NCBI GenBank assembly: GCA_036166115.1
Contig: JAYZHY010000032.1
Span: 1 to 32,561, forward strand
Reading direction: 5' to 3'
DNA: 32,561 nucleotides
Origin: Pseudomonadota bacterium
Lineage (GTDB): Bacteria; Pseudomonadota; Gammaproteobacteria; Steroidobacterales; Woeseiaceae
Shown here: positions 6,824 to 26,728 of the stretch, piece after piece
How positions within the stretch are numbered: position 1 is the first letter of the stretch
How the letters are laid out: each line of letters begins with the position of its first letter
Position numbers and translations under genes: made by a program
The notes under the pieces: generated by a model
Seen by the model: only the letters and a program-made list of their open reading frames with translations
What the model was told of the DNA's origin: nothing
Databases searched by the model: none

Positions 6824-9256
6824 ATGATTTGGTTGACCCAAAAAAAATGCCTTAGGCTTAATTATTTTTTAGCAATTCTGTCATTTTCGATCATAACTGA
6901 TCCTATATTTTCTCAGGAAAATCCGGAATCCATTCAATTTCAATTAGACAGCAACCAAATCATAAATGTTCAAAAGAAAGACGTTAACGTTAAGATAAAA
7001 ATTGATGGAAAAATTGATGAGCCAGAATGGCAGGATATTACTTCCTATGATCCCTATAAAGTAACTAAACCGGATACCCTTGCCGACACATCTTACGAAA
7101 GCAATTTAAGATTCTTTTATACTGCCAATGGATTCTATATTTCAATGGATATGAAACAACCAAAAGACACCCTAGTTAAACGCTTCAAACCCAGAGATGA
7201 CTGGCAAACCCAATCGGATAAAACGGGATTTTCAATTGATACGTCTGGAGAGGGGAAATACGGCTATTGGTTCTCAGTATCATTAGGTGGCTCAGAAGGT
7301 GATGGCACATTGATGCCCGAAAAAATTTATACTTCTGATTGGGATGGTGCATGGTATGCCGCCACATCAGAGACAGAAGATGGCTGGTCCGCAGAGTTCT
7401 ATCTGCCATGGTCGCAAGTTGCGATGCCAAAAGACGCGGATGACCGAATTATAAATTTATATAGTTTCCGAGAAGTCGCTCATTTAAACGAGGAATGGGG
7501 ATGGCCAGCACTTCCCGAATCTATGCCTCAATTCATCAGCCTTTTTCAACCAACCAGAATGAATAACGTCAACCTCAAGCAACAATGGAGTGTATTTCCT
7601 TATGCTTCGGCATCCTACGATCGAATTGACAAAGAACAATCAAATAGAGCTGGTGCCGATCTTTTCTGGCGCCCTTCAACCAACGCTCAAATAACCGCCA
7701 CAATTAATCCAGATTTTGGTGCCGTTGAAGCAGATAATGTGGTGGTAAATTTATCGGCTAACGAAACATTTTTTCCAGATAAAAGACTCTTCTTTCAAGA
7801 AGGCAATGAAGTGTTTGTCACTTCCCCTAGAGCAAGCAATCATAACTGGGGGCGCAGCAGAGTCAGTATCATAAATACCCGACGCATTGGAAGCACGCCA
7901 GATCTGCCGTCACTACCAGAAGGCGTGAGTTTTTCTGAGCGCATTAAGAAAACCACCAAAGCAGATTTGACCGGCGCTCTAAAAACTACCGGTGAATTCA
8001 ATAAATTCCGTTATGGAATCCTTGCTGCCTCTGAAGATGACACCGATTTTAAGGCTGATGACGATAAAATATACAATCAGGTAGGTCGAGATTTTGGAGC
8101 ATTGAGACTCCTGTATGAAGATACAGATCAAGGAAAGACCAAAGGCTTAGGGTTTTTGTCAACCATAGTCACAAAACCCGATACGGATTCCGTGGTCAAT
8201 GCAGTCGACATCCATTACTTGAGCGAATCTGGGGCTTGGAAAGCAGATGGTCAATATATTCATTCTAAAACACATGAAGACGGTTCTGGCCAAGGAGGTT
8301 TCTTGGATTTAGTGTACGCGCCAACCAAGGGTAGAAGCAGTCAACTCAAACTGACTGTATTTGATAAAAATATGCAGATAAATGATTTTGGGTTCAATCA
8401 AAGACGAAATACGCGTGATGCTCAGTATAATTTCACAGCCATAAATTCAAATTCAAAACGCTTTAGAGACACCTTAATGAGTGGCTATGTTCGCTATGCT
8501 GAGAACTTCGATGGACATCGAACATCAAATGCCATTGGCGGTAATTTTGATGTGACTCTCAATAGTTTGAATAAAATTAAAGGGTCTTTTGCTCATTGGC
8601 CACTTCGATTTGAAGATCGAGAGAGTTACGGCAATGGAACTTTCAAGCTTCGACCCAGATCGAGACTCAGATTTGAATATTCCACAAACAAAGCAGAGAA
8701 AATAGCTTACGGTGCGACCGTCACCTACCAAGAAGAAGACATGAAGGGCAGGAAACTTGAGGGAGAGATTGAATATACATGGTACCCAAAAACTAATATA
8801 AGTTTCGATATGAAATTAAAATATGTTGACGGGAGTGGTGGTTGGTTACTTCACCAACAAAGTAAAGACTTCACTTCGTTTTATCATCAGAAATGGGAAC
8901 AAGAGTTTAAGTTCAATTACTTTATCAACGCCAAACAACAACTGAGCATTAATCTTCAATGGGTGGGCATACAAGCGCATGAAAATAAATTTTATGTTAT
9001 TGATGCCGATAACTATAGATTAAATGAAATAAATAAACCCTATGAAGCAAGCGATAACTTCAGCATCTCAGACCTAAATATACAATTACGCTATCGCTGG
9101 CAAATAGCCCCTTTGTCTGATGTTTACTTGGTTGCCACTAAAACAGGAGCACACAGAAAACAACTTACTGCATTCAGTGATTTATTTGATGACACCATGG
9201 ATAATCCCTTGAGCGATCAAATTATCTTAAAAGTTCGTTACCGTTTTGGTTCGTAA
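6824..9256 (+). CDS. Secreted CBM9-like / DUF5916-like protein, probable outer-membrane beta-barrel (paralog 1)
   Basis: 810 aa with a signal-like N-terminus. IDGKIDEPEWQD is the D-G-x-hydrophobic-D-E-x-x-W signature I associate with family-9 carbohydrate-binding-like domains. The long C-terminal part has alternating amphipathic strands and ends ILKVRYRFGS. The family name is from memory and not verified. Confidence 0.6.
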   Translation: MIWLTQKKCLRLNYFLAILSFSIITDPIFSQENPESIQFQLDSNQIINVQKKDVNVKIKIDGKIDEPEWQDITSYDPYKVTKPDTLADTSYESNLRFFYTANGFYISMDMKQPKDTLVKRFKPRDDWQTQSDKTGFSIDTSGEGKYGYWFSVSLGGSEGDGTLMPEKIYTSDWDGAWYAATSETEDGWSAEFYLPWSQVAMPKDADDRIINLYSFREVAHLNEEWGWPALPESMPQFISLFQPTRMNNVNLKQQWSVFPYASASYDRIDKEQSNRAGADLFWRPSTNAQITATINPDFGAVEADNVVVNLSANETFFPDKRLFFQEGNEVFVTSPRASNHNWGRSRVSIINTRRIGSTPDLPSLPEGVSFSERIKKTTKADLTGALKTTGEFNKFRYGILAASEDDTDFKADDDKIYNQVGRDFGALRLLYEDTDQGKTKGLGFLSTIVTKPDTDSVVNAVDIHYLSESGAWKADGQYIHSKTHEDGSGQGGFLDLVYAPTKGRSSQLKLTVFDKNMQINDFGFNQRRNTRDAQYNFTAINSNSKRFRDTLMSGYVRYAENFDGHRTSNAIGGNFDVTLNSLNKIKGSFAHWPLRFEDRESYGNGTFKLRPRSRLRFEYSTNKAEKIAYGATVTYQEEDMKGRKLEGEIEYTWYPKTNISFDMKLKYVDGSGGWLLHQQSKDFTSFYHQKWEQEFKFNYFINAKQQLSINLQWVGIQAHENKFYVIDADNYRLNEINKPYEASDNFSISDLNIQLRYRWQIAPLSDVYLVATKTGAHRKQLTAFSDLFDDTMDNPLSDQIILKVRYRFGS

Positions 9257-9280
9257 CTAATACACTATATAATCCTTGCC

Positions 9281-11695
9281 ATGAACTCTATCAAACCCAT
9301 CAACTTGGGAGGTATCTTAACGCTTTACTTATCCATATTCTTCTCATCAACACTAGCTGCACAAGACAATTCTGAGTCCCTTCAAATTTCTCTTAATGAC
9401 AGCAAAATCATCGATGTTCAACAACGAGATTTAGATGTTGAAATTAAAATTGATGGTAAGATTGATGAAGCTGCATGGCAAGATATTACTTCGTTTGAGC
9501 GAATGAAGGTATCAAAGCCAGACACCCTTAAAGATCCCATTTACAAAAGCATTGTGCGCTTTTTCTATACAGTAGATGGCTTCTATTTTTCTGTAGAGAT
9601 GGAGCAACCCAAAAACACGTTAGTAAAACGCTTCACCAATAGAGATGATTGGAGAACTAAATCCGACAAAGTATCTGTCAGTATAGATACCTCAGGTGAA
9701 GCTAAATATGCTTATTGGATGGCATTGTCTTTGGGTGATTCAGAAGGGGATGGAACTTTACTTCCAGAAAGAAGGTATAGCATGGATTGGGACGGTGCTT
9801 GGTATGGAGCCACAGCTGAAACAGACAACGGTTGGTCTGCTGAGTTCTATATCCCGTGGTCACAGATGGCAATGCCTAAAAAAACCGGTGATCGAATTAT
9901 TAATATTGAAACTCACCGCATGGTGGCTCATCTTAATGAAGAGTGGTCTTGGCCGCCACTCCCAGATTCTATCCCGCAATTTTTGAGTCTTTTCCAACCC
10001 ACAAGAATGAATAACGTAAACCTCAAGCAACAATGGAGTATCTTTCCATATATGTCAGTCACACGTGATCGGATTGATGATAAGACCGCATATCAAGCTG
10101 GGGCTGATTTCTTTTGGCGTCCCTCAACCAATGCGCAAATTACAGCAACTATTAAACCTGATTTTGGAGCTGTTGAGTCTGATAATGTAATCGTCAATTT
10201 GACCGCAAACGAGACATTCTTTCCTGAAAAAAGATTGTTCTTCCAAGAAGGAAATGAAATCTTTAACGCCACACCTAGATCGGGACATCATGGGGGGCGG
10301 AACCGTTTTACTGTTATCAACACGCGCCGCATTGGCAGTGCGCCAGCACTTCCTGAATTGCCTGAAAATGTAAGTATTTCACCTCGAGATCAAAAAACTA
10401 CAAAAGCAGATCTAATCGGTGCGCTTAAAACCACGGGCCAATACAAAAAACTGCGTTATGGTGTATTGACAGCCTTCGAAGAGGATACTAATTATCGAGC
10501 AGATAACAACCAAATATACAGTCAAGTTGGACGAGACTTTGGGGCACTGCGGTTACTTTACGAAGACAGCGAGCAGGGAGACATCAAAAGCCTCGGTTTA
10601 TTATCAACCATAGTGACTAAACCAATCAGTGATTCGGTGGTGCATGCCATGGATTTCCATTACTTAACTGCATCCGGTGCTTGGAAGCTTGATGGTCAAT
10701 ATATCAATTCTGATACAGCTGACGGCAAAGGGAATGGGGGTTACACGGATATTTCATTCACGCCAAAACGAGGAAAAAAACACGATTTAAAACTGACCGT
10801 TTTTGATAAAGGCATGCAGGTCAATGACTTTGGTTATAACCAAAGAAACAATATACGTGACGTCCAATATAATAATAATTTTATTAACTCGAATACAGGT
10901 CGATTTAAAAATAGAGTAATCAGAAATTGGTTTAGGTATGGAGAAAACCTTAATGGCCAACAAGTGACCGGTGGTTTTGGCTCAGGGGTAGAGCTGCTAT
11001 TTAATAACTTACATGAAATTAAAACTGGTTTTGCTTATTTTCCGGCTCGTTATGAAGATAGAAATAGTTTTGGTAACGGGACTTATAAAATCAAACAACG
11101 CAATCGATTTGAATTTGAATATTCCACGAATGAAGCTAAGAAAATATCAGTCAAAGGGAAAATAACTTATCAGGATGAGAGTTTATATGATGGAAAACTG
11201 ACTTCTAAACTGGAAATGCTGTGGTATTTAAAAAGCAATCTAAGTATTGACGCCGAATTAGAATATGTTGAAGCAAGCGGCTGGTTATTACACCAAGAAG
11301 ACACTAATTTTACAACATTTCGGGCGCAGAAATGGCAGCCTGAGATCAAGCTCAATTATTTTGCCACCGCAAAGCAACAACTAAGTCTCAACCTTCAATG
11401 GGTGGGGATTCAAGCTAATGAAGATAAATTCTATATCATCAATAATGATAATCTCAATCTAATAGAAACGACAAAGCCAGCTGGTGACTCTGATAATTTT
11501 AGTATCTCTCAATTGAATATTCAATTTCGTTATCGCTGGCAAATAGCACCTCTCTCTGATCTTTATATCGTTGCCACCAAAACTGGTTCAAACAGAAGTA
11601 CGCTAACTTCATTCAACGAATTATATGAGGACACTATGGACAATCCGCTCAGCGATCAGATTATTTTGAAGATTCGCTACCGTTTTGGATCTTGA
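9281..11695 (+). CDS. Secreted CBM9-like / DUF5916-like protein (paralog 2)
   Basis: 804 aa, colinear with the upstream gene over the full length. Shared blocks include IDGKIDE..WQDITS, DWDGAWY, FQPTRMNNVNLKQQWS, FWRPSTNAQITATI.PDFGAVE and LSDQIILK.RYRFGS. It has a signal peptide (LSIFFSSTLAAQD). Confidence 0.6.
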   Translation: MNSIKPINLGGILTLYLSIFFSSTLAAQDNSESLQISLNDSKIIDVQQRDLDVEIKIDGKIDEAAWQDITSFERMKVSKPDTLKDPIYKSIVRFFYTVDGFYFSVEMEQPKNTLVKRFTNRDDWRTKSDKVSVSIDTSGEAKYAYWMALSLGDSEGDGTLLPERRYSMDWDGAWYGATAETDNGWSAEFYIPWSQMAMPKKTGDRIINIETHRMVAHLNEEWSWPPLPDSIPQFLSLFQPTRMNNVNLKQQWSIFPYMSVTRDRIDDKTAYQAGADFFWRPSTNAQITATIKPDFGAVESDNVIVNLTANETFFPEKRLFFQEGNEIFNATPRSGHHGGRNRFTVINTRRIGSAPALPELPENVSISPRDQKTTKADLIGALKTTGQYKKLRYGVLTAFEEDTNYRADNNQIYSQVGRDFGALRLLYEDSEQGDIKSLGLLSTIVTKPISDSVVHAMDFHYLTASGAWKLDGQYINSDTADGKGNGGYTDISFTPKRGKKHDLKLTVFDKGMQVNDFGYNQRNNIRDVQYNNNFINSNTGRFKNRVIRNWFRYGENLNGQQVTGGFGSGVELLFNNLHEIKTGFAYFPARYEDRNSFGNGTYKIKQRNRFEFEYSTNEAKKISVKGKITYQDESLYDGKLTSKLEMLWYLKSNLSIDAELEYVEASGWLLHQEDTNFTTFRAQKWQPEIKLNYFATAKQQLSLNLQWVGIQANEDKFYIINNDNLNLIETTKPAGDSDNFSISQLNIQFRYRWQIAPLSDLYIVATKTGSNRSTLTSFNELYEDTMDNPLSDQIILKIRYRFGS

Positions 11696-11784
11696 TTTGA
11701 CAAATATAACAGCTAGCTTTATTGCATTTATTTTTCTCTACGTGATAAGTTAATACTTAATATTATTTAACTAGAGATACAAAA

Positions 11785-12303
11785 TTGAGCGAAAATACAA
11801 AATTAAAAGAGATGTTAATAAACTACGCATCATCTCATCAACACAAAATCAACGTTCTATTTCATTTAATTGGTATTCCAACGATCATGCTGGGTATCTG
11901 TATACCTCTTAGTTGGTTAAATTACGAGGTCTTCGGCCAATCCTTCACCGCTGCTCATGCAGTCATATTTGGTTTATTTCTCTTTTATATGACACTAGAT
12001 ATAGCTTTCTCAATTGTTTTTCTCATACTGGGATTATTGATTAATCAGTACGCAATTAACTTAAGCTTGCAATCATCTGCTGGAACTATTGCTGCAATAG
12101 CTTTTTTTGGTGGTTACACATTACAATTTATCGGACATGCAATCGAGAAATCCATGCCTGTTCTAGTTAAACACCCAATCCAGGCAAATATCGCTGCGCC
12201 GTTTTTTGTGATTGTGGAAATCTTTGGAATCCTTAAACTGAGACAAGATTTATTTGAAGAAATAAATCTTCTTGTTCAACATCACAGAGAAAAAGAGAGT
12301 TGA
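11785..12303 (+). CDS. DUF962 / Mpo1-like membrane protein
   Basis: 172 aa with a TTG start. YASSHQHKINVLFHLIGIP near the N-terminus, a later GH..E motif (FIGHAIEKS) and 3-4 hydrophobic helices fit the Mpo1/YGL010w-like family as I remember it. Confidence 0.55.
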   Translation: MSENTKLKEMLINYASSHQHKINVLFHLIGIPTIMLGICIPLSWLNYEVFGQSFTAAHAVIFGLFLFYMTLDIAFSIVFLILGLLINQYAINLSLQSSAGTIAAIAFFGGYTLQFIGHAIEKSMPVLVKHPIQANIAAPFFVIVEIFGILKLRQDLFEEINLLVQHHREKES

Positions 12304-12339
12304 TTGTCTTAATATAAAAAGAAAGATTGAGGGGTTACT

Positions 12340-12414
12340 ATCAAAAACAAAAAGAATAAATCCAAAAGAATAACAAGGCGTGCCTTTATTGGAACGTCAG
12401 CTGGTGCCGCTGCA
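12340..12414 (+). other. In-frame twin-arginine leader upstream of the tracked start of the ThDP enzyme; no ATG/GTG/TTG is available
   Basis: The codons between the in-frame TGA (12328-12330) and ATG 12415 read G V T I K N K K N K S K R I T R R A F I G T S A G A A A. TRRAFIG is a near-consensus Tat motif. GAGGGG (12329-12334) sits 5 nt upstream of ATC 12340. Confidence 0.55.
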
Positions 12415-14244
12415 ATGCTAGGTAATGGCGCTAATTCGAAGGAATCAATACAATCCGATCAAAAAATAACTGCTCCAGCACCCTCAAAATCCGAGCTTGA
12501 TCGAGATGTTGGGAGCACTGCACCACCAAATAAAATCTTAAGAGCAGCTCAACGCCCCGGATCCGACTTAATGGTTCAAACATTAAGAGATCTCAATATA
12601 GAATTTATTGCTGCAAATCCTGCATCCAGTTTTGAAGGACTCCAAGAATCCATTGTAAATTATGGAACTCCTCCAAATACTATGCCAGAACTTATAACTG
12701 CGCTTCATGAGGAATCTGCTGTAGATATGGCGCATGGTTATGCAAAATCTCAAGGTCACCCTATGGCGGTTATGCTACATGGTACAGTTGGATTGCAACA
12801 CGCGTCCATGGCGATTTATCAATGCTATCACGATAAAACCCCCGTAGTTATAATAGTCGGTCGTGATGATAAATTTTTTCGACAAGAACAAACTGCAAAT
12901 GATATTGCCGGACTGACACGAGCATTTACAAAATGGGACGCCCAACCAACTACCCTTAAAGGCGCGTTAAGCGACATTCAGCAAGCTTTTAATGAGGCGA
13001 TCACGCCGCCAATGGGGCCAACAATTGTTGTCATTGACGTTGAGTTGCAGAAAGAAGAAGCTGGAGATTTAAAAATACCAAGCTACAAACCTCCAATTTT
13101 TCAAGCTATTAGCAAAAAGGAAGCAAAACAAATAGCACAAAACCTACTTAAAGCAAATAACCCAAGACTCCAAGTTGGCAAACTAAGAACGCCAAATGGC
13201 ATTGAGAATGCGATTAAATTAGCAGAATTATCAGGTTGCTCGGTAAGAACAGCTGCTACAGGCGGACCCATGAGCTTCCCAGAACGTCATCCGCAATGTG
13301 GCAAAGGTCAAGATGATAATTATGATTATATCCTGGGTTTAGAATCCGATGGTAGGGACACATCAATTCAAGGTCCAACATTGCTCTCAAATGCTAATAA
13401 TAGAGATTTATCTGATATTGGTTTTGGTTTCATTAGAGAACCAGTTGTTCCGCCAAGGAGGGATCTCTCCGGAAATAATGATATAACCTCTGACGCTGAA
13501 GTGAGCATCCCAATTATCATTGAACAATTTAAACGTATTCAAGCAAAAGAAGATGTAAATACTATCGCCAACAGACGAAAAATACTTGCTACTGCAAACT
13601 CACAGAATTACCGACAAGCTCTAAAAGTAACGCTTGAGAAAAAAAGAAAAGGATGGAATTCAAGTCCAGTGAGCCTGGCAAGGCTATATTCTGAGTTATG
13701 GCCACTTATCAAAGATTTAGATTGGTGCCTTTCATCGCCAACTGTTTTTTCAAGCAGGCATCACATTGGGCTATGGGATCACAATAAACCATACAGCTAT
13801 CTCGGCATGCATGGTGCCGGAGGTATTGGTTACTGTATAGGTGCTTCTGCTGGAGCAGGTCTAGCTGCCAGAAGTCGTGATAGGATTGTGATCAATATTC
13901 AATGTGACGGCGATCTGAATTATACACCAGGATCTTTGTGGACGGCAGCACATCACAACCTCCCTTTATTAACCATTATGCATAATAACCGAGGATATCA
14001 TCAGGAAGTCATGTATCTGCATTATATGGCTGGCGTCCGAGGAAGAGGCACTGATCGTATGCACATTGGTACGACTCTGCGAGAACCGTTTATCGATTAC
14101 GCTAAGTTAGCAGAAGCTTATGGGGTGCAGAGTGAAGGTCCAATAGATAACCCTGAAAACCTTACAGCCGCTTACAATCGAGGTATTGAATCCGTTTTAT
14201 CAGGCAAGCCATATCTAATTGACGTAATAACAGAACCAAGATGA
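12415..14244 (+). CDS. Thiamine-diphosphate-dependent enzyme (acetolactate synthase/pyruvate oxidase superfamily), probably Tat-exported; the true start is likely upstream (about 12340)
   Basis: 609 aa from the tracked ATG. The N-domain carries the catalytic-Glu region (ALHEESAVDMAHGYAK). The C-domain carries the ThDP/Mg motif CDGDL-(X)-MHNN (x-D-G, 24 residues, N-N). The stop overlaps the next start (ATGA at 14241-14244). Confidence 0.8.
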   Translation: MLGNGANSKESIQSDQKITAPAPSKSELDRDVGSTAPPNKILRAAQRPGSDLMVQTLRDLNIEFIAANPASSFEGLQESIVNYGTPPNTMPELITALHEESAVDMAHGYAKSQGHPMAVMLHGTVGLQHASMAIYQCYHDKTPVVIIVGRDDKFFRQEQTANDIAGLTRAFTKWDAQPTTLKGALSDIQQAFNEAITPPMGPTIVVIDVELQKEEAGDLKIPSYKPPIFQAISKKEAKQIAQNLLKANNPRLQVGKLRTPNGIENAIKLAELSGCSVRTAATGGPMSFPERHPQCGKGQDDNYDYILGLESDGRDTSIQGPTLLSNANNRDLSDIGFGFIREPVVPPRRDLSGNNDITSDAEVSIPIIIEQFKRIQAKEDVNTIANRRKILATANSQNYRQALKVTLEKKRKGWNSSPVSLARLYSELWPLIKDLDWCLSSPTVFSSRHHIGLWDHNKPYSYLGMHGAGGIGYCIGASAGAGLAARSRDRIVINIQCDGDLNYTPGSLWTAAHHNLPLLTIMHNNRGYHQEVMYLHYMAGVRGRGTDRMHIGTTLREPFIDYAKLAEAYGVQSEGPIDNPENLTAAYNRGIESVLSGKPYLIDVITEPR

Positions 14245-14669
14245 ATCAAGTTATAACGAAAATCATAAATAAACGAGCATGGATTATAATTTTTCTAGGT
14301 TTTCCGATCTTTGCCGCTTCTGCTGACCTAGATAATGGGGTTTCACTCTATCTGGATCATGGGTGTTACAGCTGTCACGGATACAATGGAACTGGCAGAT
14401 ATCCATTGGCAAATGATGTCAGTGGGATTATGACCAGCGAAGAACTTTTTATTATCTTCTTACGATTAAGAGCAGATTTGAACCCAATGACCCCAACAAA
14501 CAGTATGCCAAATTATAGCGAATCGGTTATTAGTGACAAAGAAGCCAAAGATATATACGCTTATATGAAAACTTTTAAAGACGATCCACCGGAAATTGAA
14601 AATATACCCGTGCTCAAAGAAATTCTAGACAATGCAAACAGGAACCAAAATGATGAACAAAATAAGTAA
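14241..14669 (+). CDS. Monoheme class-I c-type cytochrome, secreted
   Basis: 142 aa. It has a signal peptide (AWIIIFLGFPIFAASA), a single CXXCH heme-attachment site (CYSCH) and a downstream Met-Pro (NSMPNY) that is a candidate axial ligand. Confidence 0.8.
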   Translation: MNQVITKIINKRAWIIIFLGFPIFAASADLDNGVSLYLDHGCYSCHGYNGTGRYPLANDVSGIMTSEELFIIFLRLRADLNPMTPTNSMPNYSESVISDKEAKDIYAYMKTFKDDPPEIENIPVLKEILDNANRNQNDEQNK

Positions 14670-15900
14670 AATTTTAAAACTATTCTTCACATCTTTACTG
14701 ATAATTTATTTTTACCAGCCTCTGATGGCACATCACTCAGCAGTGGCTTTCGATAAAACTAAAACTGTGACCATTTCTGGAACAATAACTCGATCAGTAT
14801 GGCGCAATCCGCATATGGCCATCAATATGGATGTAACAAATGACGATGGCAGCTCAGATTTATGGAAAATTGAAGGGCCTGGTACAACTATTCTCTCTGG
14901 ACAAGGCTTTAATAAAAAAATGTTAACCGATGCCACAAAGTCAAAAGAAAATATTACTGTAACTGTTCATCCTCTTCGGACAGGTGCCCCAGGAGGATTA
15001 CTGCAAAAAATTACGCTTGCAAATAGTGAGACATACACAGTTGGCGAAGATTACGAAGAAGTGGCAACGAATGTTCAAGAAAGAATTATTCCTTCGCTTG
15101 TAGAATGGTCACCACCTCCAGAGGGTGAAACTATACAAGAAAGAGAAGCAAAAACTCGACCAAAACAGCTGCCATTATTGGCAAACAGCCCTCGTCAAAC
15201 AAGTTTGGGGGCACTTGACCCAGAAAATCTTAATAAAAAGAGGCCTCCTGCACCCTTTGATGTAACTGGTATATGGTCTTTTAGAGGCGAAGACAGAGGG
15301 GAAACAAACTATACATCGATGTATGGTTCTTATGAGTTCAAACCACATCCAAAATTTACTGAAAAAGGTCGCAAAACTCTGGACGAGTATCTCAGCTTTG
15401 CTCGTGCTGGTAAGCGATATTATGAGCCAACGGCAAGGTGTTATCCCGCTGGGATGCCTCGCCTAATGACTCGTTATGGTGCATTAATGATGCTGCAATA
15501 CCCTACTGCAATTTACATGGTTTCCAGGCTTAATAACGAATACAGAGTTATTTGGCTGGATGGTAGAGATAGAGAACCCGTTGATACTCGCGACAACAAT
15601 TGGAATGGCGAATCCATAGGTCATTGGGAAGGCGACACCTTGGTTGTAGAGACGCTTGGATTTACCGATGAAAATCATTTAATTCAACAAGGCATCTTTA
15701 CTGGCGATCAATTAAAAATAGTTGAACGTTACTCTATGCTAAATGATGGAAATACCTTACAAATTGATTTCACAATGACTGACCCAGAACACTGGGAAGG
15801 GGAATGGAAGCATACAAAATTTAGAGATCTAACATTACGCGCCGATATCAGGGAAGCAAATTGCATTGCGGCTGATAATGAATTACTGCCAGGTATGTAA
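14650..15900 (+). CDS. Secreted two-domain protein: N-terminal HHS domain (DUF6152-like) + linker + C-terminal two-cysteine domain (called X here)
   Basis: I prefer ATG 14650 (AGGA 7 nt upstream) to the tracked 14632. Signal peptide KILKLFFTSLLIIYFYQPLMA, then HHSAVAFDKT..W.NPH. After a ~65-aa low-complexity linker comes GIW...CYPAGMPRL...RVIWLDGR...GHWEGDTLVVET...ANC. The DUF6152 name is from memory. Confidence 0.7.
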   Translation: MMNKISKILKLFFTSLLIIYFYQPLMAHHSAVAFDKTKTVTISGTITRSVWRNPHMAINMDVTNDDGSSDLWKIEGPGTTILSGQGFNKKMLTDATKSKENITVTVHPLRTGAPGGLLQKITLANSETYTVGEDYEEVATNVQERIIPSLVEWSPPPEGETIQEREAKTRPKQLPLLANSPRQTSLGALDPENLNKKRPPAPFDVTGIWSFRGEDRGETNYTSMYGSYEFKPHPKFTEKGRKTLDEYLSFARAGKRYYEPTARCYPAGMPRLMTRYGALMMLQYPTAIYMVSRLNNEYRVIWLDGRDREPVDTRDNNWNGESIGHWEGDTLVVETLGFTDENHLIQQGIFTGDQLKIVERYSMLNDGNTLQIDFTMTDPEHWEGEWKHTKFRDLTLRADIREANCIAADNELLPGM

Positions 15901-15916
15901 GAATTAAGGAAATACT

Positions 15917-16948
15917 ATGTTTAACAAGAAACGATTAACCATATATTGTTATTTATTAAGCCTATTCTTTATATTTAATAATTCTTTTGTTCAAGCACAT
16001 CATTCTCACGCCAATCTTAACAGAGAAGACATAAGAATCTACAGCGGTGTCGTGACAAGATACAGCTGGACCATGCCTCATGTGTTTCTAAAAGTAAAAG
16101 CGCCTGATCAATCTGGCGAGGTGGTTGAATACAGTATTGAAATGCTGCATCCGCCTGCCATGGCTAAACGAGGTTGGAATAAAACGAGTTTCAGGCAAGG
16201 GGATCTCATTACTTGGGAAGGACCTCATGACTTTAATGAATCAAGACATTATACCGGATTGAGTTGGGCAGAAAGGAATGATGGTTCTCGGCTTTCAATG
16301 ACTGAACAAGAAGAAGGAGAAATCAATCCTTCTACCGACTTTTCAGGTTTATGGAAAAGATCCGATTACGACCCAGAGACAGGAAAAGCAAAATTTAATC
16401 CTCATTACAAACCGCCAAAAGGTTGGCCGCTTACAAAAGTCGGTCAAAACTTGGTTGATAATTTCCATGAAGATCAAAATCCCATGGTTAACTGCGGTAA
16501 CCCTGGCCCACCCAAAGCCATGATTGTGCCTTACCCAGTAATGATAACGAGGCCTAATGATGAAACGATTGTGTTTGAGAGAGAATTAATGCAAACAGCT
16601 AGAGTTATTCATTTGGATCACCAAAAAGAGAAGGGTGCCCCATCAAAACTTGGGCACTCAATCGGACGGTTTGAAGATGGCGGCTTGATTGTTAAAACCG
16701 ATAATTTTGTTGATGATCCATGGGGATCGCATACGGGTATAGATTCCAGTAAACAAAAACACTTAACTGAGAAATTTACTCTATCAGAAGACGGTTTGTT
16801 CTTATATGCAGAAATTACTGTTGATGATCCTGTGTATTTATCAAAACCACATACCTTTTATCATCGTTGGAAAAAGATTGCTGACCGTGAAGTCATTCAA
16901 GCGCCATGCACAATGGAAAGCGCAAAATTATACCTACAAGGCGGATAA
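15917..16948 (+). CDS. Secreted two-domain protein, paralogous architecture (HHS domain + X domain)
   Basis: 343 aa with AAGGA upstream. Signal peptide ...FVQA, then HHSHANLN...W.MPH. The C-terminal half has GLW...NCGNPGPP...RVIHLDH...GRFEDGGLIVKT...APC, colinear with the preceding gene but strongly diverged. Confidence 0.7.
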   Translation: MFNKKRLTIYCYLLSLFFIFNNSFVQAHHSHANLNREDIRIYSGVVTRYSWTMPHVFLKVKAPDQSGEVVEYSIEMLHPPAMAKRGWNKTSFRQGDLITWEGPHDFNESRHYTGLSWAERNDGSRLSMTEQEEGEINPSTDFSGLWKRSDYDPETGKAKFNPHYKPPKGWPLTKVGQNLVDNFHEDQNPMVNCGNPGPPKAMIVPYPVMITRPNDETIVFERELMQTARVIHLDHQKEKGAPSKLGHSIGRFEDGGLIVKTDNFVDDPWGSHTGIDSSKQKHLTEKFTLSEDGLFLYAEITVDDPVYLSKPHTFYHRWKKIADREVIQAPCTMESAKLYLQGG

Positions 16949-16955
16949 GAAATAA

Positions 16956-17786
16956 CTACATATCATTCTTATTGATTTTCATAGAAGCCACCAAGCAACC
17001 GCAAGCAAATTCTGGGATAGGTTTGTAAAAATAAATTTTTCCTTTTCCTCCTGCAGCACCTGCCACAGCAATTGATGTTCTTATTTCAAATGCGCCTTGA
17101 CCTGCTTTTGCTAAAATATCTTCATCTTTGTAATCAGTCATTGCACAACGATCATTCTTTTGCCAGTTACTAAGAAACTCCCTGTCCCATTCCTCATTTA
17201 TTTTGCCGCTATCAGGAGTGCATGGCCAATGTGAAGTCCCACCGGTACCAATTAAAGCTATTCTCTCTGGAATGCTTTCAAAAACTTCTCTAATAGCGAC
17301 ACCAAATTTATAGCTTCTGGAAAAAGGTGTTAAAGGAGGAGATTGACAATTTATATTGGCGGGGATGATTGGAATATCATAACTTGGTGTGAGGTGATGC
17401 AAAGGCACCATCATACCGTGATCAAATTTCCACTCCTCTGAATAAGAAACATCAATTTCATTTAAGAGTAACGAAATTATCCTTTTTGATAGCTCTGCAT
17501 CACCAGGTATTCTTACTTTCTCTATACCTAACCACTGTGAATCTTCAATTGGTCCTTCATAATATTGCCCCATTCCAATCGCATAGGTTGGCATATTATT
17601 ATTGAAAAAATTTGCATAATGCTCTGCAGAAATTATGAATATAGCATCAGGCTCCACTTCTTCAATTTCTCTTTTGAGTCGAGAAAATTGAATTTTTAAT
17701 TCAGCAAGATCATTTTGATTGGCTGCTTCTGGACGGCTGGTAATTCCAGGAGCATGGCAACAAATTCCCGCATACACCAGACTCAT
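16956..17786 (-). CDS. Class-III extradiol ring-cleavage dioxygenase (LigB/MhpB family)
   Basis: 276 aa. CCHAPGI (N-terminal metal His), IISAEHY, KFDHGMMVPL and IGTGGTSHWP match the LigB-family Fe(II)-ligand and active-site blocks (compare MhpB LSHSP, APDHY, VDHG, GSGGLSH). Confidence 0.75.
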   Translation of the reverse strand: MSLVYAGICCHAPGITSRPEAANQNDLAELKIQFSRLKREIEEVEPDAIFIISAEHYANFFNNNMPTYAIGMGQYYEGPIEDSQWLGIEKVRIPGDAELSKRIISLLLNEIDVSYSEEWKFDHGMMVPLHHLTPSYDIPIIPANINCQSPPLTPFSRSYKFGVAIREVFESIPERIALIGTGGTSHWPCTPDSGKINEEWDREFLSNWQKNDRCAMTDYKDEDILAKAGQGAFEIRTSIAVAGAAGGKGKIYFYKPIPEFACGCLVASMKINKNDM

Positions 17787-17826
17787 AAAAAGATCATCTT
17801 GTTAGCATTTATTTTAAACATAATGC

Positions 17827-18480
17827 TTATTTGTCAGTAATATTCTCAGCAGTAACGCCTTCGGCTTTTAAGGCAATCTTAGTGGCTTCTCTTGCCTCCA
17901 TCCGTTTGCGATGCGCCATCCAATTTGGCATATCAGCAACATGCTCTACAACATCTTCTCTTTGGCTCCAAATATGAAATACAAATAAATAAGCATCACA
18001 AACACTATAAACGTCACCCAACGCCCATTTTTTTCCTGACAGTCGCCTTTCAACCTCCATGAGTGTATTTTTTAGATTGGGTATGCCGACCTTCAATAGT
18101 TCCGAATACAATTCCTTGCTATCGACCAATAAATTCGGTCTAAATAAAGGTCGAAATGCAATGTGGACTGTACTTGATAGAAAATTCATCCATTCGTGTG
18201 CCCTTGCCCGAGACAAAGGGTCATTCTTAGGTATAAGCTCAACAGAAGCTTTATCAGCAATATAAGATAATATTGCGTGAGTTTCAGTTAACACTTTATC
18301 CCCCGTTAGAAGTGTCGGTATCTTGCCCCAAGGATTCATTTTCTTGTAAGCGCTTTCTTTATGCTCACCCTTTCTAATTCTCACTGGCATCGCTTCATAA
18401 GCGAGGCCAGATTCTTCCAGAGCAATGTGACAGGCAAGTGAACATGCCCTGGGGCTAAAAAATAGTTTTAAATCAGTCAT
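17827..18480 (-). CDS. Glutathione S-transferase
   Basis: 217 aa. The N-terminal thioredoxin-like part (LKLFFSPRACSLACHIALEE..., NPWGKIPTL, ETHAILSYI) and the helical C-domain are typical of bacterial beta-like GSTs. It lies 40 nt upstream of, and co-directional with, the dioxygenase gene. Confidence 0.8.
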   Translation of the reverse strand: MTDLKLFFSPRACSLACHIALEESGLAYEAMPVRIRKGEHKESAYKKMNPWGKIPTLLTGDKVLTETHAILSYIADKASVELIPKNDPLSRARAHEWMNFLSSTVHIAFRPLFRPNLLVDSKELYSELLKVGIPNLKNTLMEVERRLSGKKWALGDVYSVCDAYLFVFHIWSQREDVVEHVADMPNWMAHRKRMEAREATKIALKAEGVTAENITDK

Positions 18481-18648
18481 GTTCGATTCCTAATAATCTT
18501 ATATATTTCCATAATATGGCAAACGTTATCGTGATGTTTTTTAAACTCTAATCAAAAAATAAATTCGACTTTGGTCAATCCTACTCATAACATTAATATT
18601 TGCTATGCATTATTGAAAAATAACGTAAACATAAAAATACATAAAACC

Positions 18649-19449
18649 ATGAATATCTATAAAACTACAATAATATTCTTTATTTTCTTCTTGGGATCAG
18701 TTTCTGCTAAAGATGAACAAGAAATTCCCGATTGGAGTGGCATTTGGGAGCGATATGAAGACAATGGAGGAATGTTTGATGTGTCTACAACTAAACCTCC
18801 AGAAGGTCGTGCCGGCAGCCCAAATGTTAGACAATTTCCACCTTTGACTCCCCTTTGGGAAGAAAAATACAAGAAAAACCTAGCATTGGTTGCAAGAGAC
18901 AGATTGCCCGATCCAATATCCATTTGTGGAACACCAGCTGGCTATCCTCGACTGCTTGCTTTACCTGATGTCTATGAATTTATAGTGCGTCCTGAAAAAA
19001 CATGGATAGTTACTGAAAACGGGCCAAATATCATGAGAATCTATACAGATGGAAGAGGCCACCCCAAAGAAAATGAGCGCTGGCCAACCTACACTGGAGA
19101 ATCTGTAGGTTCATGGGAAGGGGATGTCTTGCATTTTAAGACAGTAAGCATGATTGGAGAAAAAAACACTGTTCTAGACAGGAGTGGAATGACCTTAAGT
19201 GAAAAAGCAACTATCTCAACCAGTATTTTTAAGAATGAAGCAGGCTTACTTCGCGCGGAATTAACGATAGTCGATCCAATTGCATTAACTCAACCATGGC
19301 ATGTAACTCGTCATTTCAGAAAACTGCCCAAAGAAACACGAATATTTGATTATGCTTGTGCTGAAAATAATCGGAACCCAATTACAAACACAGGAAAAAC
19401 GCTAACTCTTGGTCCAGATGGGATACCAATCGATAAGAACATCGAATAA
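18649..19449 (+). CDS. Secreted stand-alone X-domain protein (homologous to the C-terminal halves of 14650..15900 and 15917..16948)
   Basis: I prefer ATG 18649 (MNIYKTTIIFFIFFLGSVSA|KDE signal peptide) to the tracked non-ATG start at 18571. Motifs: GIW...ICGTPAGYPRL...RIYTDGR...GSWEGDVLHFKT...YAC. Confidence 0.7.
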   Translation: MNIYKTTIIFFIFFLGSVSAKDEQEIPDWSGIWERYEDNGGMFDVSTTKPPEGRAGSPNVRQFPPLTPLWEEKYKKNLALVARDRLPDPISICGTPAGYPRLLALPDVYEFIVRPEKTWIVTENGPNIMRIYTDGRGHPKENERWPTYTGESVGSWEGDVLHFKTVSMIGEKNTVLDRSGMTLSEKATISTSIFKNEAGLLRAELTIVDPIALTQPWHVTRHFRKLPKETRIFDYACAENNRNPITNTGKTLTLGPDGIPIDKNIE

Positions 19450-19459
19450 AGAGGTTATT

Positions 19460-19855
19460 ATGCTAATACATCGAATACATAAATACTGCTTTTTAATATT
19501 AAGCCTAATATTAATTTGTTGGGGAAATTTATACGCGCATCACTCAAGCGCAATGTTTGATAAAACACACGTCCTTAAAGTAAAGGCTGTTGTAAAAGAA
19601 TTTCAATGGGCCAATCCGCATGTTTGGATACAGATATACATCCCAAATCAAAATAACAAAGAAGAATGGAGCATTGAAGGAATAGGAATAAATACATTAT
19701 TTAGAAGAGGGTGGAGGCCAAATTCTTTCCAGCCTGGTGATGAAATAGACATTAGTTTCAACCCGATGCTTGATGGTTCTCATGCAGGGCTCTTTATTGG
19801 TGCCAGATTTGAAGATGGGAAAATATTAGGAAAGTGGGAGAATACGAATAATTAG
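19460..19855 (+). CDS. Secreted stand-alone HHS-domain protein (DUF6152-like)
   Basis: I prefer ATG 19460 (GAGG 5 nt upstream, 10 nt after the previous stop) to the tracked 19409. Signal peptide ...GNLYA, then HHSSAMFDKTHVLKVKAVVKEFQWANPHVWIQ. It is 131 aa, the size I recall for this family. Confidence 0.7.
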   Translation: MLIHRIHKYCFLILSLILICWGNLYAHHSSAMFDKTHVLKVKAVVKEFQWANPHVWIQIYIPNQNNKEEWSIEGIGINTLFRRGWRPNSFQPGDEIDISFNPMLDGSHAGLFIGARFEDGKILGKWENTNN

Positions 19856-21153
19856 CTGCGTAATGTTCGAATTCCTTTTAATAAAGTTTCACAAAAAGCA
19901 TTCACATCAGAGCGATCCATTACTGTAGAACAAACTCCAGTCAATCCAGGAGTTAACCAATATCCTTTGCTAAACATATAATAATGCAATCCATTGCTCT
20001 TATAGACCTTTCCCCTTTCACTGCAATCCGATAATATCGTATCGTTAATCGTCATTCCAAAGATTGAAAATTGCCCTTCCACCCTTCCATCCACGTCGCT
20101 TAATTCAAAAACCTCTTTAATACCACTGCGAAATAACGCTCCAAGTTTATTAAGTTCAATGAATGCATCTTCTGTTAGCATTTCCATGGTCTTCTTGCCT
20201 GCAGCCATACTGACCGGATTTGCATTAAATGTTCCGCCATGAGGTAATTTTGCCCTCTCACCATGTGACTCAAAAACGTCCATGACATCATTATGACCGG
20301 CAACCGCTCCAATCGGAAATCCGCCACCTATAATCTTTCCTAGTGCAGTTAAATGCGGATTGATTTGTCTTTCAGTTTGACAGCCAGAATATCCAGCCCT
20401 AAAAGAGACAACTTCATCCGCAATCAATAAAATATGATATTTTTCACACACATCTTCTAGCATCTCAAGAAATTCGTCACTGGGTATTGATCTGCCATAT
20501 GTTTGACCAAATGGGTCAATTAGGATGGCGGCCAATTCATGAGCACTGTCCTCGATTATTTTCTTGGCAACGGATGCATTATTAAAAGGAATAATAACTA
20601 CATCATTGAGAACTCCTTGAGGTGTTCCTGATGAATAGGCCATCGATTTTGGTTTTAATTCTTCAGGGCTAGTTTTATCAACACCAAGGCTGACTTCTGC
20701 ATAGTCGTAACTGCCATGGTAAGAATTCTCACACTTTACAATCTTACTTTTACCGGTATAAGCTCGAGCTGCTTTAATTGCATTCATGACAGCTTCAGTG
20801 CCTGAATTCATGAATCTTATTTTTTCAAAATTTTGATTACGACTGCATAACATTTCAGCATAGGAGTACTCGGTTTCACTGCCAAATGAAAAACCAGTGC
20901 CTTTTTTTATTTGACTAATTGCAGCTTTGGTAACCTCAGGATGCGCATGTCCGTGTATAAGAGCAGTATAATTATTATTTAAGTCAAAATAACGATTGCC
21001 ATCAATATCATTAAGATACTTTCCTTTGGCTGACTTAATATAGATCGAATGTGGTGACAGACTGATTGTGCTCCTCGACCCTCCATCGGGAAGCACCTCT
21101 TTTGCAGTCTCAAAACTCCTTCGTGATTCTTCTAAGGAGACCTCTTTTGCCAT
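19852..21153 (-). CDS. Class-III aminotransferase, glutamate-1-semialdehyde 2,1-aminomutase (HemL)-like
   Basis: 433 aa. VLPDGGSRS, NSGTEAVMNAIKAARAYTGK, DEVVSFRAGYSG and LGKIIGGGFPIGAV (PLP lysine) are colinear with HemL-type enzymes. Whether it is a true HemL or a paralogous aminotransferase cannot be decided from the sequence. Confidence 0.75.
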   Translation of the reverse strand: MAKEVSLEESRRSFETAKEVLPDGGSRSTISLSPHSIYIKSAKGKYLNDIDGNRYFDLNNNYTALIHGHAHPEVTKAAISQIKKGTGFSFGSETEYSYAEMLCSRNQNFEKIRFMNSGTEAVMNAIKAARAYTGKSKIVKCENSYHGSYDYAEVSLGVDKTSPEELKPKSMAYSSGTPQGVLNDVVIIPFNNASVAKKIIEDSAHELAAILIDPFGQTYGRSIPSDEFLEMLEDVCEKYHILLIADEVVSFRAGYSGCQTERQINPHLTALGKIIGGGFPIGAVAGHNDVMDVFESHGERAKLPHGGTFNANPVSMAAGKKTMEMLTEDAFIELNKLGALFRSGIKEVFELSDVDGRVEGQFSIFGMTINDTILSDCSERGKVYKSNGLHYYMFSKGYWLTPGLTGVCSTVMDRSDVNAFCETLLKGIRTLRS

Positions 21154-22815: not shown

Positions 22816-22915
22816 CTTACCTAACTCCTATAACATCAATGAGATCATCCTAAAGCTTCCAGATATGTGTGTCTAGAACTCAATTGAAAAGAATCGTTAA
22901 TTAACTGTAAAGCTC

Positions 22916-24220: not shown

Positions 24221-24273
24221 AACGATTATCTCATTTAATAAAACTTTTAAATTACATTAACATTCTTATATGC

Positions 24274-24302: not shown

Positions 24303-24369
24303 TTAAAAGCTGTGTAAGATTTATTACTTAAACTAGACACTTTAATCAAATAAAAATCGAAGGAAAAAT

Positions 24370-26712: not shown

Positions 26713-26728
26713 TTTCTGCAGCTGTTTT

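Follow-up and report, generated by a model that had tools for sequence, protein, structure and literature searches.

The stretch of DNA analysed here, referred to as the window, is a contig of 32,561 nucleotides (JAYZHY010000032.1, assembly GCA_036166115.1) from a gammaproteobacterium of the family Woeseiaceae. At positions 12340-19855 it carries eight closely packed genes, encoding an enzyme dependent on thiamine diphosphate (ThDP) with a leader for twin-arginine translocation (Tat), a c-type cytochrome, four proteins composed of two domains called here HHS and X, an extradiol dioxygenase and a glutathione S-transferase (GST). An earlier sequence-only reading had described these genes as a candidate for an undescribed periplasmic redox locus with six exported products. 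The open reading frame (ORF) listing combined with Pfam recovered all eight ORFs with the coordinates and strands it had given, and family hidden Markov models (HMMs) detect exactly three HHS and three X domains across the whole window, as had been counted earlier (E = 1e-37 to 8e-81, far beyond chance). The features of the locus are the following.

12329..12334, + strand: candidate ribosome-binding site GAGGGG, read from the sequence, 5 nt before the proposed ATC start
12340..14244, + strand: Tat-signal ThDP enzyme of the decarboxylase superfamily (TPP_enzyme_N/C), proposed ATC start at 12340, first ATG at 12415
14241..14669, + strand: secreted monoheme class I cytochrome c (PF00034), one CXXCH, ATGA overlap with the ThDP gene
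14650..15900, + strand: HHS-X protein 1, about 415 residues, with signal peptide, DUF6152 domain (OB fold in the model), conserved long linker and X domain (barrel in the model); the ORF spans 14632-15900
15917..16948, + strand: HHS-X protein 2, 343 residues, with signal peptide, DUF6152, short linker and X
16956..17786, - strand: LigB-type (class III) extradiol dioxygenase, cytoplasmic (PF02900, 124.5 bits)
17827..18480, - strand: GST, GstA/MaiA-like, cytoplasmic (GST_N and GST_C)
18649..19449, + strand: secreted X-only protein, matched by the X HMM and by no Pfam family; the ORF opens with TTG at 18571, the likely start is the ATG at 18649
19460..19855, + strand: secreted HHS-only (DUF6152) protein (PF19649); the ORF opens with TTG at 19409, the likely start is the ATG at 19460

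Successive gaps from the ThDP gene to the gene that follows the HHS-only gene measure -4, about -17, 16, 7, 40, 168, 10 and -4 nt. The ATGA overlap reported between the ThDP and cytochrome c genes is present at 14241-14244, HHS-X 1 begins about 17-20 nt before the cytochrome c gene ends, and the X-only and HHS-only genes are separated by 10 nt. Signal peptides, all read by eye from the ORF translations, agree with the six exported products: a Tat leader on the ThDP enzyme and Sec-type signals on the five others, with predicted cleavage sites (arrows) at ASA↓D in the cytochrome c and at LMA↓HHS, VQA↓HHS, LYA↓HHS and VSA↓KDE, so placed that the cut falls exactly before His-His-Ser in all three HHS proteins. 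The LigB and GST proteins, for which a cytoplasmic location had been given, have no signal peptide. Base composition is uniform along the window, and the locus therefore looks native; an Rfam scan of the window found no riboswitch or other RNA family, and promoter and terminator scans of it gave nothing above shuffled controls. Two comparative sets were used throughout: a scan of GTDB species representatives seeded with HHS-X 1, which gave 63 loci on whose six-frame ORFs the window proteins and family HMMs were mapped, and a ThDP-seeded scan of metagenome loci, of which 80 were kept (38-99 % identity, 37-70 % GC).

In the ThDP enzyme (ORF 12415-14244) Pfam identifies TPP_enzyme_N (PF02776, 63 bits) and TPP_enzyme_C (PF02775, 72.7 bits). 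The Tat-type leader claimed for it lies upstream of the first ATG, where the reading frame is open from 12331 and encodes KSKRITRRAFIGTSAGAAAMLG, which contains a twin-arginine (RR) motif; the segment T-R-R-A-F-I-G-TSAGAAAMLG fits the Tat motif S/T-R-R-x-F-L-K followed by a weakly hydrophobic h-region. Upstream of the RR motif the window offers no ATG, GTG or TTG, and the ATC at 12340, which follows GAGGGG and coincides with the start coordinate proposed by the sequence-only reading, is to judge from this context the likely start codon of the gene. In Woeseiaceae loci of about 80 % identity (L007, L008, L052 and L010) the stretch from the upstream stop to the RR motif likewise contains no canonical start, and among them the codons of the motif are synonymous variants (CGT CGA, CGC CGA, CGG CGA and AGG CGT). 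Where gene callers use a TTG (entry P0005, 'MGTSAS...'), the window reads ATT and L052 reads CTT, and more distant homologues (P0117, P0118, P0120, L014 and L016) have an ATG upstream of the RR motif. From the synonymous codon changes, the variation at the TTG and the ATG of the distant homologues it follows that the Tat leader is under purifying selection, and translation in the low-GC Woeseiaceae clade probably starts at AUC, AUA or AUU. Because the start codon is non-canonical, the public ThDP entries of this clade come without a signal: gene callers begin inside or after the RR motif, and entries P0001, P0005 and P0093 look cytoplasmic. Among the metagenome homologues the Tat motif is present in 68 of 70 complete N-termini, and this conservation backs a periplasmic location of the enzyme.

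The closest solved structure by sequence is benzoylformate decarboxylase (BFDC; E = 4e-27). The activating Glu of the motif 'ALHEES' aligns with BFDC Glu47, an equivalent of BFDC His70 is present, and 'CDGD...MHNN' aligns with the BFDC motif 'GDGS...MNN', keeping the Asp and both Asn with the first Gly replaced by Cys. An AlphaFold2 (AF2) model of moderate quality (pLDDT 64), with alternating helices and strands at 259-334, aligns in Foldseek over about 600 columns to BFDC, HKA synthase, carboxyethylarginine synthase (CEAS), benzaldehyde lyase (BAL), AHAS, glyoxylate carboligase and pyruvate oxidase, all at E ~1e-23, and with this moderate model the fold search did not narrow the subfamily. 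Nor did NCBIfam, where the enzyme stays under the cut-off of every model: PRK08327, 'thiamine pyrophosphate-requiring protein' (NF006203), aligns over the full length (72-631 to 9-568) at 155.8 bits against a cut-off of 456. Orthology to BFDC was considered and rejected, the equivalog NF005485 scoring 151.4 bits against 493. With BFDC, BAL, AHAS and pyruvate oxidase the window enzyme shares the Mg-ThDP motif, the catalytic Glu and the counterpart of BFDC His70, and, to judge from the moderate model, a three-domain fold; it differs from this superfamily in its low identity (about 18-20 % over the Foldseek alignments), the Tat leader and the cytochrome c neighbour, and in the AF2 model some 40 residues are inserted and a helical segment is long. 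As modelled, it is a full three-domain enzyme of no characterised subfamily. ThDP enzymes are regarded as cytoplasmic or organellar. We know of no described periplasmic ThDP enzyme and of no characterised member of the superfamily with a twin-arginine leader or a cytochrome c neighbour, and a search covering part of the literature returned nothing relevant on a periplasmic Tat ThDP enzyme with a cytochrome c.

The cytochrome c (PF00034, 41 bits) has a single CXXCH and a Sec signal and belongs to one monoheme family, since CYxCH is found in 100 % and the M-P axial-Met motif in 99 % of 82 orthologues. A CXXCH cytochrome lies directly downstream of the Tat-ThDP gene in 51 of the 61 metagenome loci with at least 700 nt of downstream sequence, over the range of 37-70 % GC, and the pair is kept intact where it is inverted relative to HHS-X (L037 and L045). 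It is also found on replicons of cultured Burkholderia sp. SFA1 (AP022311), Caballeronia zhejiangensis (NZ_CP084287) and Novosphingobium sp. KACC 22771 (NZ_CP117882), in the last of which a second cytochrome c and then a TonB-dependent receptor follow. The Tat-signal ThDP enzyme and the Sec-signal monoheme cytochrome c form a tight two-gene module. In the sulfite dehydrogenase SorAB and similar periplasmic two-subunit dehydrogenases, a catalytic subunit that has a Tat signal and carries an organic or complex cofactor (molybdopterin in SorAB) is encoded beside a small monoheme cytochrome c, which is exported by Sec and takes up the electrons of the catalytic subunit. Electron transfer is what a small class I cytochrome c generally does when it is translationally coupled to an enzyme of this sort, and the cytochrome may by analogy be the electron acceptor of the ThDP enzyme. 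The likeness is one of gene-pair architecture and export logic only: the cofactor is ThDP and not molybdopterin, the proteins have no sequence relationship, and conserved HHS/X partners are added. We slightly favour redox coupling of the pair. The label 'redox' given to the locus earlier is to that extent partly supported, and it derives solely from the cytochrome c that adjoins the ThDP gene.

The 63 HHS-X loci come from Woeseiaceae, from other Gammaproteobacteria (SAR86, Pseudohongiellaceae, Steroidobacteraceae and Pseudomonadales), from the alphaproteobacterial genus Parasphingopyxis and from the Vicinamibacterales of the Acidobacteriota. Among named relatives, those nearest to the ThDP and HHS-X proteins are found in Woeseiaceae metagenome-assembled genomes at about 80 % identity, and two metagenome contigs (L072 and L073) are 99 % and 95 % identical. 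The HHS-X 1/HHS-X 2 pair is almost universal among the 63 loci, in 19 of which a Tat-ThDP gene (40-81 % identity) and a cytochrome c adjoin it. All six periplasmic genes (ThDP, cytochrome c, HHS-X 1, HHS-X 2, X and HHS) occur together in L003, L007-L012, L014, L016 and L052, and in L028 and L050 the order is HHS, HHS-X 2, HHS-X 1, further genes and then ThDP-cytochrome c. Contigs with Pfam annotation gave the same picture. Approached from the ThDP gene, HHS/X genes are present in 13 of the 23 loci with at least 4 kb on each side (12 times within 3 kb). Taking the loci of both scans together, HHS/X genes stand downstream, divergently upstream, in the order ThDP-HHS-X-X, or separated from the ThDP gene by mau genes. 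Over all 80 ThDP-seeded loci, X was detected in 26, HHS in 32 and both in 24, the next most frequent other gene family reaching at most 7; iterated HHS and X HMMs revealed no extra divergent copies in the loci that seem to lack them. Of all partners of the ThDP-cytochrome c pair, HHS/X sets occur most often; HHS and X themselves always go together, either within one protein or in adjacent genes. A gene for X followed by one for HHS is a recurrent pair, seen in many loci and also in cultured Sphingomonadales. In the latter the arrangement is DUF6152-DUF6152-X-TonB receptor in Croceibacterium atlanticum 26DY36 (NZ_CP011453) and X-DUF6152 in Novosphingobium humi.

The sequence-only reading had made its case depend on co-localisation of the homologues in other genomes, and they do co-localise, in very different lineages and in varied gene orders. 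Its treatment of the eight genes as one unit stands in part. The six periplasmic genes recur together; LigB and GST are absent from the same position in L009, L010, L075, L076 and L104 and are present only in a subset of loci, those of closer Woeseiaceae-like relatives, so that these two genes are a clade-specific cassette peripheral to the locus. For LigB the match to PF02900 (124.5 bits against 26.3) assigns the superfamily and not the substrate, because no equivalog cut-off is reached (NCBIfam PRK13364, 125 against 290 bits; MhpB-like, 124 against 286 bits). The GST (GST_N 62 bits, GST_C 22.8 bits; GstA equivalog 127 bits against a cut-off of 198) belongs to a family that recurs in 10 HHS-X-seeded loci.

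HHS corresponds to DUF6152 (PF19649), matched in the ORFs 14632-15900, 15917-16948 and 19409-19855 with 74.4, 52.9 and 93.0 bits (gathering threshold 27; E = 8e-21, 4e-14 and 1e-26). A full-text search that covered part of the literature found no paper mentioning DUF6152. Across 184 distinct HHS domains the residue at -1 is Ala in 89 %, followed by His (100 %), His (99 %) and Ser (93 %), and further on by Trp (85 %), Pro-His (100 %) and Glu (91 %); the first invariant His is the predicted mature N-terminus. Because three His and one Glu are conserved and the first His stands at this N-terminus, the pattern is a metal-site signature, and HHS quite probably binds a metal. In the AF2 model the N-terminal domain of HHS-X 1 resembles OB folds such as SSB and the B subunits of AB5 toxins (Foldseek, none at E < 1e-3). 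Despite the invariant N-terminal His-His and the Pro-His, this OB scaffold places HHS outside the histidine-brace proteins, although it may act like a brace. What HHS has in common with LPMO, CopC, the CuB site of PmoB and CusF is a likely metal site, formed by the predicted mature N-terminal His with further His. CusF binds its metal in the periplasm on an OB fold, through Met ligands and with a Trp close by, to which the conserved W-x-x-P-H of HHS may be compared. HHS differs in that it is not homologous to them, its fold is OB and not Ig-like or cupredoxin, and its putative ligands are His and Glu instead of the Met of CusF.

The earlier statement that both domains are uncharacterised is borne out, HHS being only a DUF and X belonging to no Pfam or NCBIfam family. 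The X-only protein has no Pfam match even at E <= 10, none of 139 diverse X representatives carries a Pfam domain over X (8 are fused to DUF6152), and the only name found among the cluster members that were read is 'hypothetical protein', with no informative source annotation. The three copies in the window share 25-28 % mutual identity and two invariant Cys, and a profile built from them matches, among the representatives of clusters formed at 50 % identity, 10,981 at E <= 1e-3 and 4,800 at the stricter E <= 1e-10. X spans about 200-220 residues and conserves two Cys, Arg, Asp, Ser, Trp, Glu and Asp, with no His, Cys or Met cluster apart from the Cys pair. This pair is likely a disulfide, which fits a periplasmic location, and in the model it ties a conserved N-terminal segment to the C-terminus. 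In the AF2 model of HHS-X 1 (80 sequences; pLDDT 82.9, pTM 0.75) X is a barrel of about 10 strands with a preceding helix, and its top fold matches in the PDB are CRBP1, FABP1, iFABP and SAHS; for HHS-X 1 Foldseek against the PDB gave nothing under E = 1e-3, and PDB searches by sequence gave no match, either with the single protein or with a 77-sequence profile. The modelled barrel is thus similar to those of calycins (FABP, CRBP, lipocalins, ZinT and YceI), but the matches are weak and are accompanied by no Pfam or PDB sequence similarity. On the conservation of the locus and on these two uncharacterised domains, the claim of an undescribed conserved periplasmic locus holds as far as the partly covered literature extends.

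In the fetched loci the architectures HHS-X (121), X (101), HHS (76) and X-X (2) were counted, and fusions of cytochrome c to HHS or X were sought there and not found. HHS-X 1 orthologues are 58-80 % identical in Gamma- and Alphaproteobacteria, and HHS-X 2 is almost always paired with HHS-X 1. The linker of HHS-X 1 (residues ~130-205, window ~15040-15265) is about 70 residues longer than that of HHS-X 2 and near-invariant among orthologues (e.g. PPPxGETWQERExKTRPxQLP), although hardly any secondary structure is predicted for it; a partner protein may dock there. In Vicinamibacterales (L055, L057, L059, L060, L064 and L065) X forms the N-terminal part of proteins of 595-703 residues in which it is fused with a metallo-beta-lactamase-fold domain, and these proteins are clustered with further X and HHS genes.

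The genes found beside the module in sister loci bear on its substrate. TonB-dependent receptors stand directly beside HHS/X in 16 genome loci, and OMP_b-brl_4/CarboxypepD_reg receptors recur near the ThDP-cytochrome c pair. Between HHS-X 1 and ThDP-cytochrome c-cytochrome c in L028 (11718-15100) and L050 lie mauB-mauE-mauD-mauA-like genes for an amine dehydrogenase of the tryptophan tryptophylquinone (TTQ) type, which are also present in L013; the MauA/B-like proteins score under the equivalog cut-offs. An assignment of the five genes of this block in L028 and L050 to TonB/ExbBD was rejected in favour of mauB/E/D/A-like; the block includes a 140-residue ORF without Pfam match, and no amicyanin gene was recognised in it. 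A Tat-signal flavin amine oxidoreductase with its own cytochrome c occurs in L044, L047 (~700-2900) and L048, next to a LysR gene, three HHS/X genes and a TonB receptor, and a Tat amine oxidase lies inside L008 (15891-17357), a close relative of the window; the oxidoreductases of L044, L047 and L048 with their cytochromes match by analogy the dehydrogenase-plus-cytochrome logic of the ThDP pair. Two Tat-signal paralogues resembling DgaE-family ammonia-lyases diverge from HHS-X 1/2 in five loci (L023, L024, L026, L027 and L039), and L029 and L032 encode a protein like CuyA, D-cysteine desulfhydrase and ACC-deaminase with the Pfam domain TAT_signal. Characterised members of the DgaE and CuyA/ACC-deaminase families deaminate their substrates to 2-oxoacids, and exported lyases of these families, which depend on pyridoxal phosphate (PLP), are unusual in themselves. 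The aminotransferases adjoining the ThDP gene in L079, L082 and L083 were checked for export and carry no signal.

A further type of locus, without Tat-ThDP and without cytochrome c (L004, L013, L015, L017, L019 and L020), has the order DUF5916 - (MFS) - weak Nramp-like transporter - cytoplasmic PRK08266-family ThDP protein - HHS-X 1 - HHS-X 2 - further HHS/X - Tricorn-like peptidase/amidohydrolase. The PRK08266-family protein, directly before HHS-X 1, has as its next-best NCBIfam match the 2-ketoarginine decarboxylase AruI. Because these loci dispense with the Tat enzyme and the cytochrome, they suggest that the same substrate may be handled inside the cell in some lineages. The cytoplasmic genes that recur are LigB, the fumarylacetoacetate-hydrolase (FAH) family, HpcH/HpaI aldolase, aldehyde dehydrogenase and GST; tannase also recurs, and the regulators near HHS/X are of the LysR, TetR and MarR families. 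An aromatic or quinone-type substrate, as had been guessed, is in keeping with BFDC as the nearest structure and with the recurrence of LigB, FAH, HpaI aldolase, aldehyde dehydrogenase and tannase, but the amine and amino-acid context is at least as strong. The common thread appears to be periplasmic chemistry on amines, amino acids and carbonyls by cofactor-loaded Tat enzymes downstream of outer-membrane uptake, and there is a chance just short of even that the gene set of the window is one instance of a conserved periplasmic catabolic set.

Two features adjoin the locus directly in the window.

6824..12303, + strand: two secreted DUF5916 proteins and an Mpo1-like membrane protein, upstream on the same strand with short gaps; syntenic context
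19852..21153, - strand: class III aminotransferase, convergent with the HHS-only gene with a 4-nt overlap; recurrent neighbour

The DUF5916/Mpo1-like block is syntenic in L007, L009, L052, L073, L076 and L077 and possibly belongs to the same operon, and its Mpo1-like gene is restricted to the low-GC Woeseiaceae clade. The DUF5916 proteins, tandem secreted proteins of 800 residues encoded on the strand of the ThDP operon (6824-9256 and 9281-11695, + strand), found no relative in the PDB by sequence; entry through the outer membrane may be their role, and in sister loci a DUF5916/CBM9 protein or a TonB-dependent receptor is found in their place. The class III aminotransferase adjoins the module also in L003, L010, L012 and L076. 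Further upstream (5151-6251, + strand) lies a class I/II PLP aminotransferase with the Tat-type leader EITRRSVINSILAGTASL, scoring 209 bits for PtaA against a cut-off of 500; from this leader it is likely a second exported enzyme with an organic cofactor. PtaA is a Tat-exported periplasmic transaminase of pyoverdine maturation. TTQ amine dehydrogenases (methylamine and aromatic amine dehydrogenase) and PtaA are alike in being periplasmic, amine-acting and loaded with cofactor around export, and the former are represented by the mauBEDA-like genes of sister loci and the latter by this PtaA-like gene of the window; both differ from the proteins of the locus in being their neighbours and not their homologues. 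The block at 21178-28791 consists of a TPR lipoprotein, an MFS sugar-type transporter, DUF3604, a SurA-like PPIase and HupE/UreJ_2; in L007, L008, L104 and L106 it lies on the opposite side of the ThDP locus, which is inverted relative to its flanks. The signal peptide of the HupE/UreJ_2 protein (27571-28791, + strand) ends ATAHA↓HTKSES and would leave an N-terminal His after the predicted cleavage, and HupE/UreJ_2 genes recur near the HHS-X loci L005, L013, L015 and L017. Both ends of the window encode amine-related functions, with a class III aminotransferase fragment, a GNAT acetyltransferase and a histone-deacetylase-family (acetylpolyamine amidohydrolase-like) protein at 19-2023, and a BCCT transporter and a SoxG-like sarcosine oxidase subunit at 30220-32343.

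Our reading of the locus, held tentatively and with chances close to but below even, is that of a periplasmic 2-oxoacid or aldehyde:cytochrome c oxidoreductase with metal-binding HHS/X ligand-handling proteins, acting on imported amine, amino-acid or aromatic compounds. The ThDP enzyme would fold and bind its cofactor in the cytoplasm, be exported by Tat and pair in the periplasm with the cytochrome c, as SorA does with SorB. Its substrate, a 2-oxoacid or aldehyde, would be decarboxylated on ThDP and the enamine oxidised by two one-electron transfers to haem; the acyl-ThDP would then be hydrolysed and the electrons would pass to the respiratory chain. The substrate could be a carbonyl compound from periplasmic deamination of an imported amine, amino acid or aromatic, or an imported aryl or alkyl 2-oxoacid. 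The X barrel would bind an organic ligand and the HHS OB domain would hold a metal, probably Cu(II) or another divalent ion, through His-His, Pro-His and Glu; HHS-X would shuttle or present the substrate between receptor and enzymes, or perform a metal-dependent step. In the clade of the window, LigB, GST and the aminotransferase might complete the processing of the product in the cytoplasm. Pyruvate oxidase/PoxB and PFOR carry out oxidative decarboxylation on ThDP and pass the electrons on via FAD or Fe-S, in the cytoplasm or at the inner membrane face. What they have in common with the proposed enzyme is the chemistry; the difference is that no flavin or Fe-S relay is detectable in the enzyme of the window.

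Several observations weigh against this reading. The central domain of the ThDP enzyme has no match to Pfam TPP_enzyme_M (PF00205) and its AF2 model is moderate; a flavin or Fe-S relay signature was sought in the enzyme by Pfam and in the AF2 model and none was found, and to our knowledge direct electron transfer from ThDP to haem has no precedent. Ten of the 61 ThDP genes have no downstream cytochrome. About half of the ThDP-cytochrome c loci have no HHS/X in reach and most HHS-X loci are without the pair, and because each is so often seen without the other, HHS/X is not an obligatory subunit. The case for metal binding by HHS comes only from conservation, and the likeness of X to calycins is weak (E = 1e-3 to 1e-2, target TM 0.5-0.57) and has no counterpart in sequence. 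For the substrate class the neighbouring genes are the guide, and since these vary from one lineage to another the class is a guess; any specific class is at best doubtful.

Alternative explanations were weighed against the same evidence. In one, which we regard as unlikely, electrons enter the HHS/X proteins: the ThDP enzyme and cytochrome c would reduce copper on HHS, and HHS-X would be a periplasmic mono-oxygenase or oxidase acting on a ligand held by X. The model for it is the reduction of histidine-brace LPMOs by cellobiose dehydrogenase or c-type cytochrome domains, and the predicted mature N-terminal His of HHS with its two further invariant His is like the CuB site of PmoB and the LPMO brace. 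The genes for ThDP enzyme, cytochrome c and HHS-X 1 are moreover translationally coupled, the 58-80 % identity of HHS-X 1 is conservation of the kind seen in enzymes, and an operon of the window type has no other periplasmic enzyme to make a substrate for ThDP. Known braces are, however, built on an Ig-like or cupredoxin fold and HHS on an OB fold, many HHS/X sets are found with neither a cytochrome c nor a dehydrogenase in the vicinity, and the fusion of X to a metallo-beta-lactamase in Acidobacteriota suggests substrate handling that is independent of redox chemistry.

It is rather improbable that the locus serves metal acquisition, with HHS/X proteins as metallochaperones or metallophore binders that work from the TonB receptor or DUF5916 protein to an inner-membrane importer and the ThDP-cytochrome c pair as a reductase. 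The N-terminal site of HHS, rich in His and carried by the same OB fold as in CusF, would suit this function, as would the receptors adjoining HHS/X, the HupE/UreJ_2 and weak Nramp-like transporters of several loci and the precedent of ZinT, a calycin-like Zn protein with a His-rich N-terminus. Yet X has no conserved His/Cys/Met cluster beyond its disulfide, the Nramp match is weak (20.7 bits against a cut-off of 29.8), and some 11,000 diverged X clusters, with several paralogous sets per genome, fit diverse organic ligands better. The neighbouring genes are catabolic and accompanied by LysR, TetR or MarR, not by Fur, Zur, NikR or metal ABC systems.

A similarly small chance is given to a ThDP chemistry without redox, in which the enzyme is a plain exported decarboxylase, lyase or carboligase, the cytochrome works for some other enzyme or for respiration in general, and HHS/X are binders only. 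The nearest structures (BFDC, benzaldehyde lyase, HKA synthase and CEAS) are all non-redox, no flavin-binding signature was found in the enzyme, and in a few loci (L125 and L127) the ThDP gene is followed by HHS-X-X without a cytochrome. Against this stand the cytochrome c downstream in those 51 of 61 loci of 37-70 % GC, which moves with the ThDP gene on inversion and whose gene overlaps it, and the pairs of Tat flavin amine oxidase and cytochrome c in sister loci, which follow the same logic of dehydrogenase plus cytochrome.

Very unlikely is an alpha-oxidation of lipids, by which the locus would shorten 2-hydroxy or 2-oxo fatty acids or sphingoid-base derivatives in the envelope, with X as a fatty-acid barrel. 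The Mpo1-like gene directly upstream is syntenic in the closest relatives, FABPs are the best fold matches of X, X has an invariant Arg, and ThDP-dependent 2-hydroxyacyl-CoA lyases are among the fold matches of the enzyme; but Mpo1 is limited to one clade, no fatty-acid transport or beta-oxidation genes recur in the compared loci, and elsewhere amine-related and PLP neighbours dominate. That unrelated secreted proteins lie side by side by chance and form no functional unit, for which the variation of LigB, GST and many flanking genes between lineages might speak, is extremely improbable and already contradicted: dozens of unrelated contigs keep the ThDP-cytochrome c and HHS-X adjacencies, and rearrangements, gene fusions and overlaps of stop with start codons are seen as well.

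The oxidoreductase reading may also be placed in a wider frame, for which our confidence is low: HHS and X together would constitute a new periplasmic metalloprotein module that works with Tat-exported ThDP, PLP or flavin enzymes and cytochromes in an extracytoplasmic pathway, deaminating and oxidising TonB-imported organic nitrogen compounds or aromatics, releasing ammonia and delivering electrons directly to respiration. Within this pathway, and just as doubtfully, the ThDP enzyme would be the first periplasmic one and the first to pass the electrons of its enamine directly to haem, without a flavin or Fe-S relay; the system as a whole would be widespread in marine Woeseiaceae and SAR86 and in soil Acidobacteriota and Sphingomonadales. 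The HHS/X module itself could prove categorically new.

If the oxidoreductase reading is true, a Tat-exported ThDP enzyme wired to a cytochrome c would add a cofactor class to periplasmic bioenergetics and provide a new route for oxidising 2-oxoacids or aldehydes. The X family is a large blind spot of annotation, and together with DUF6152 it marks loci that hold TonB receptors and exported PLP, flavin and TTQ enzymes. Since some carriers are in culture, the hypothesis is open to direct test. Should the loci serve to use dissolved organic nitrogen or aromatics outside the cytoplasm, they would bear on the turnover of such compounds by abundant marine (Woeseiaceae, SAR86) and soil bacteria.

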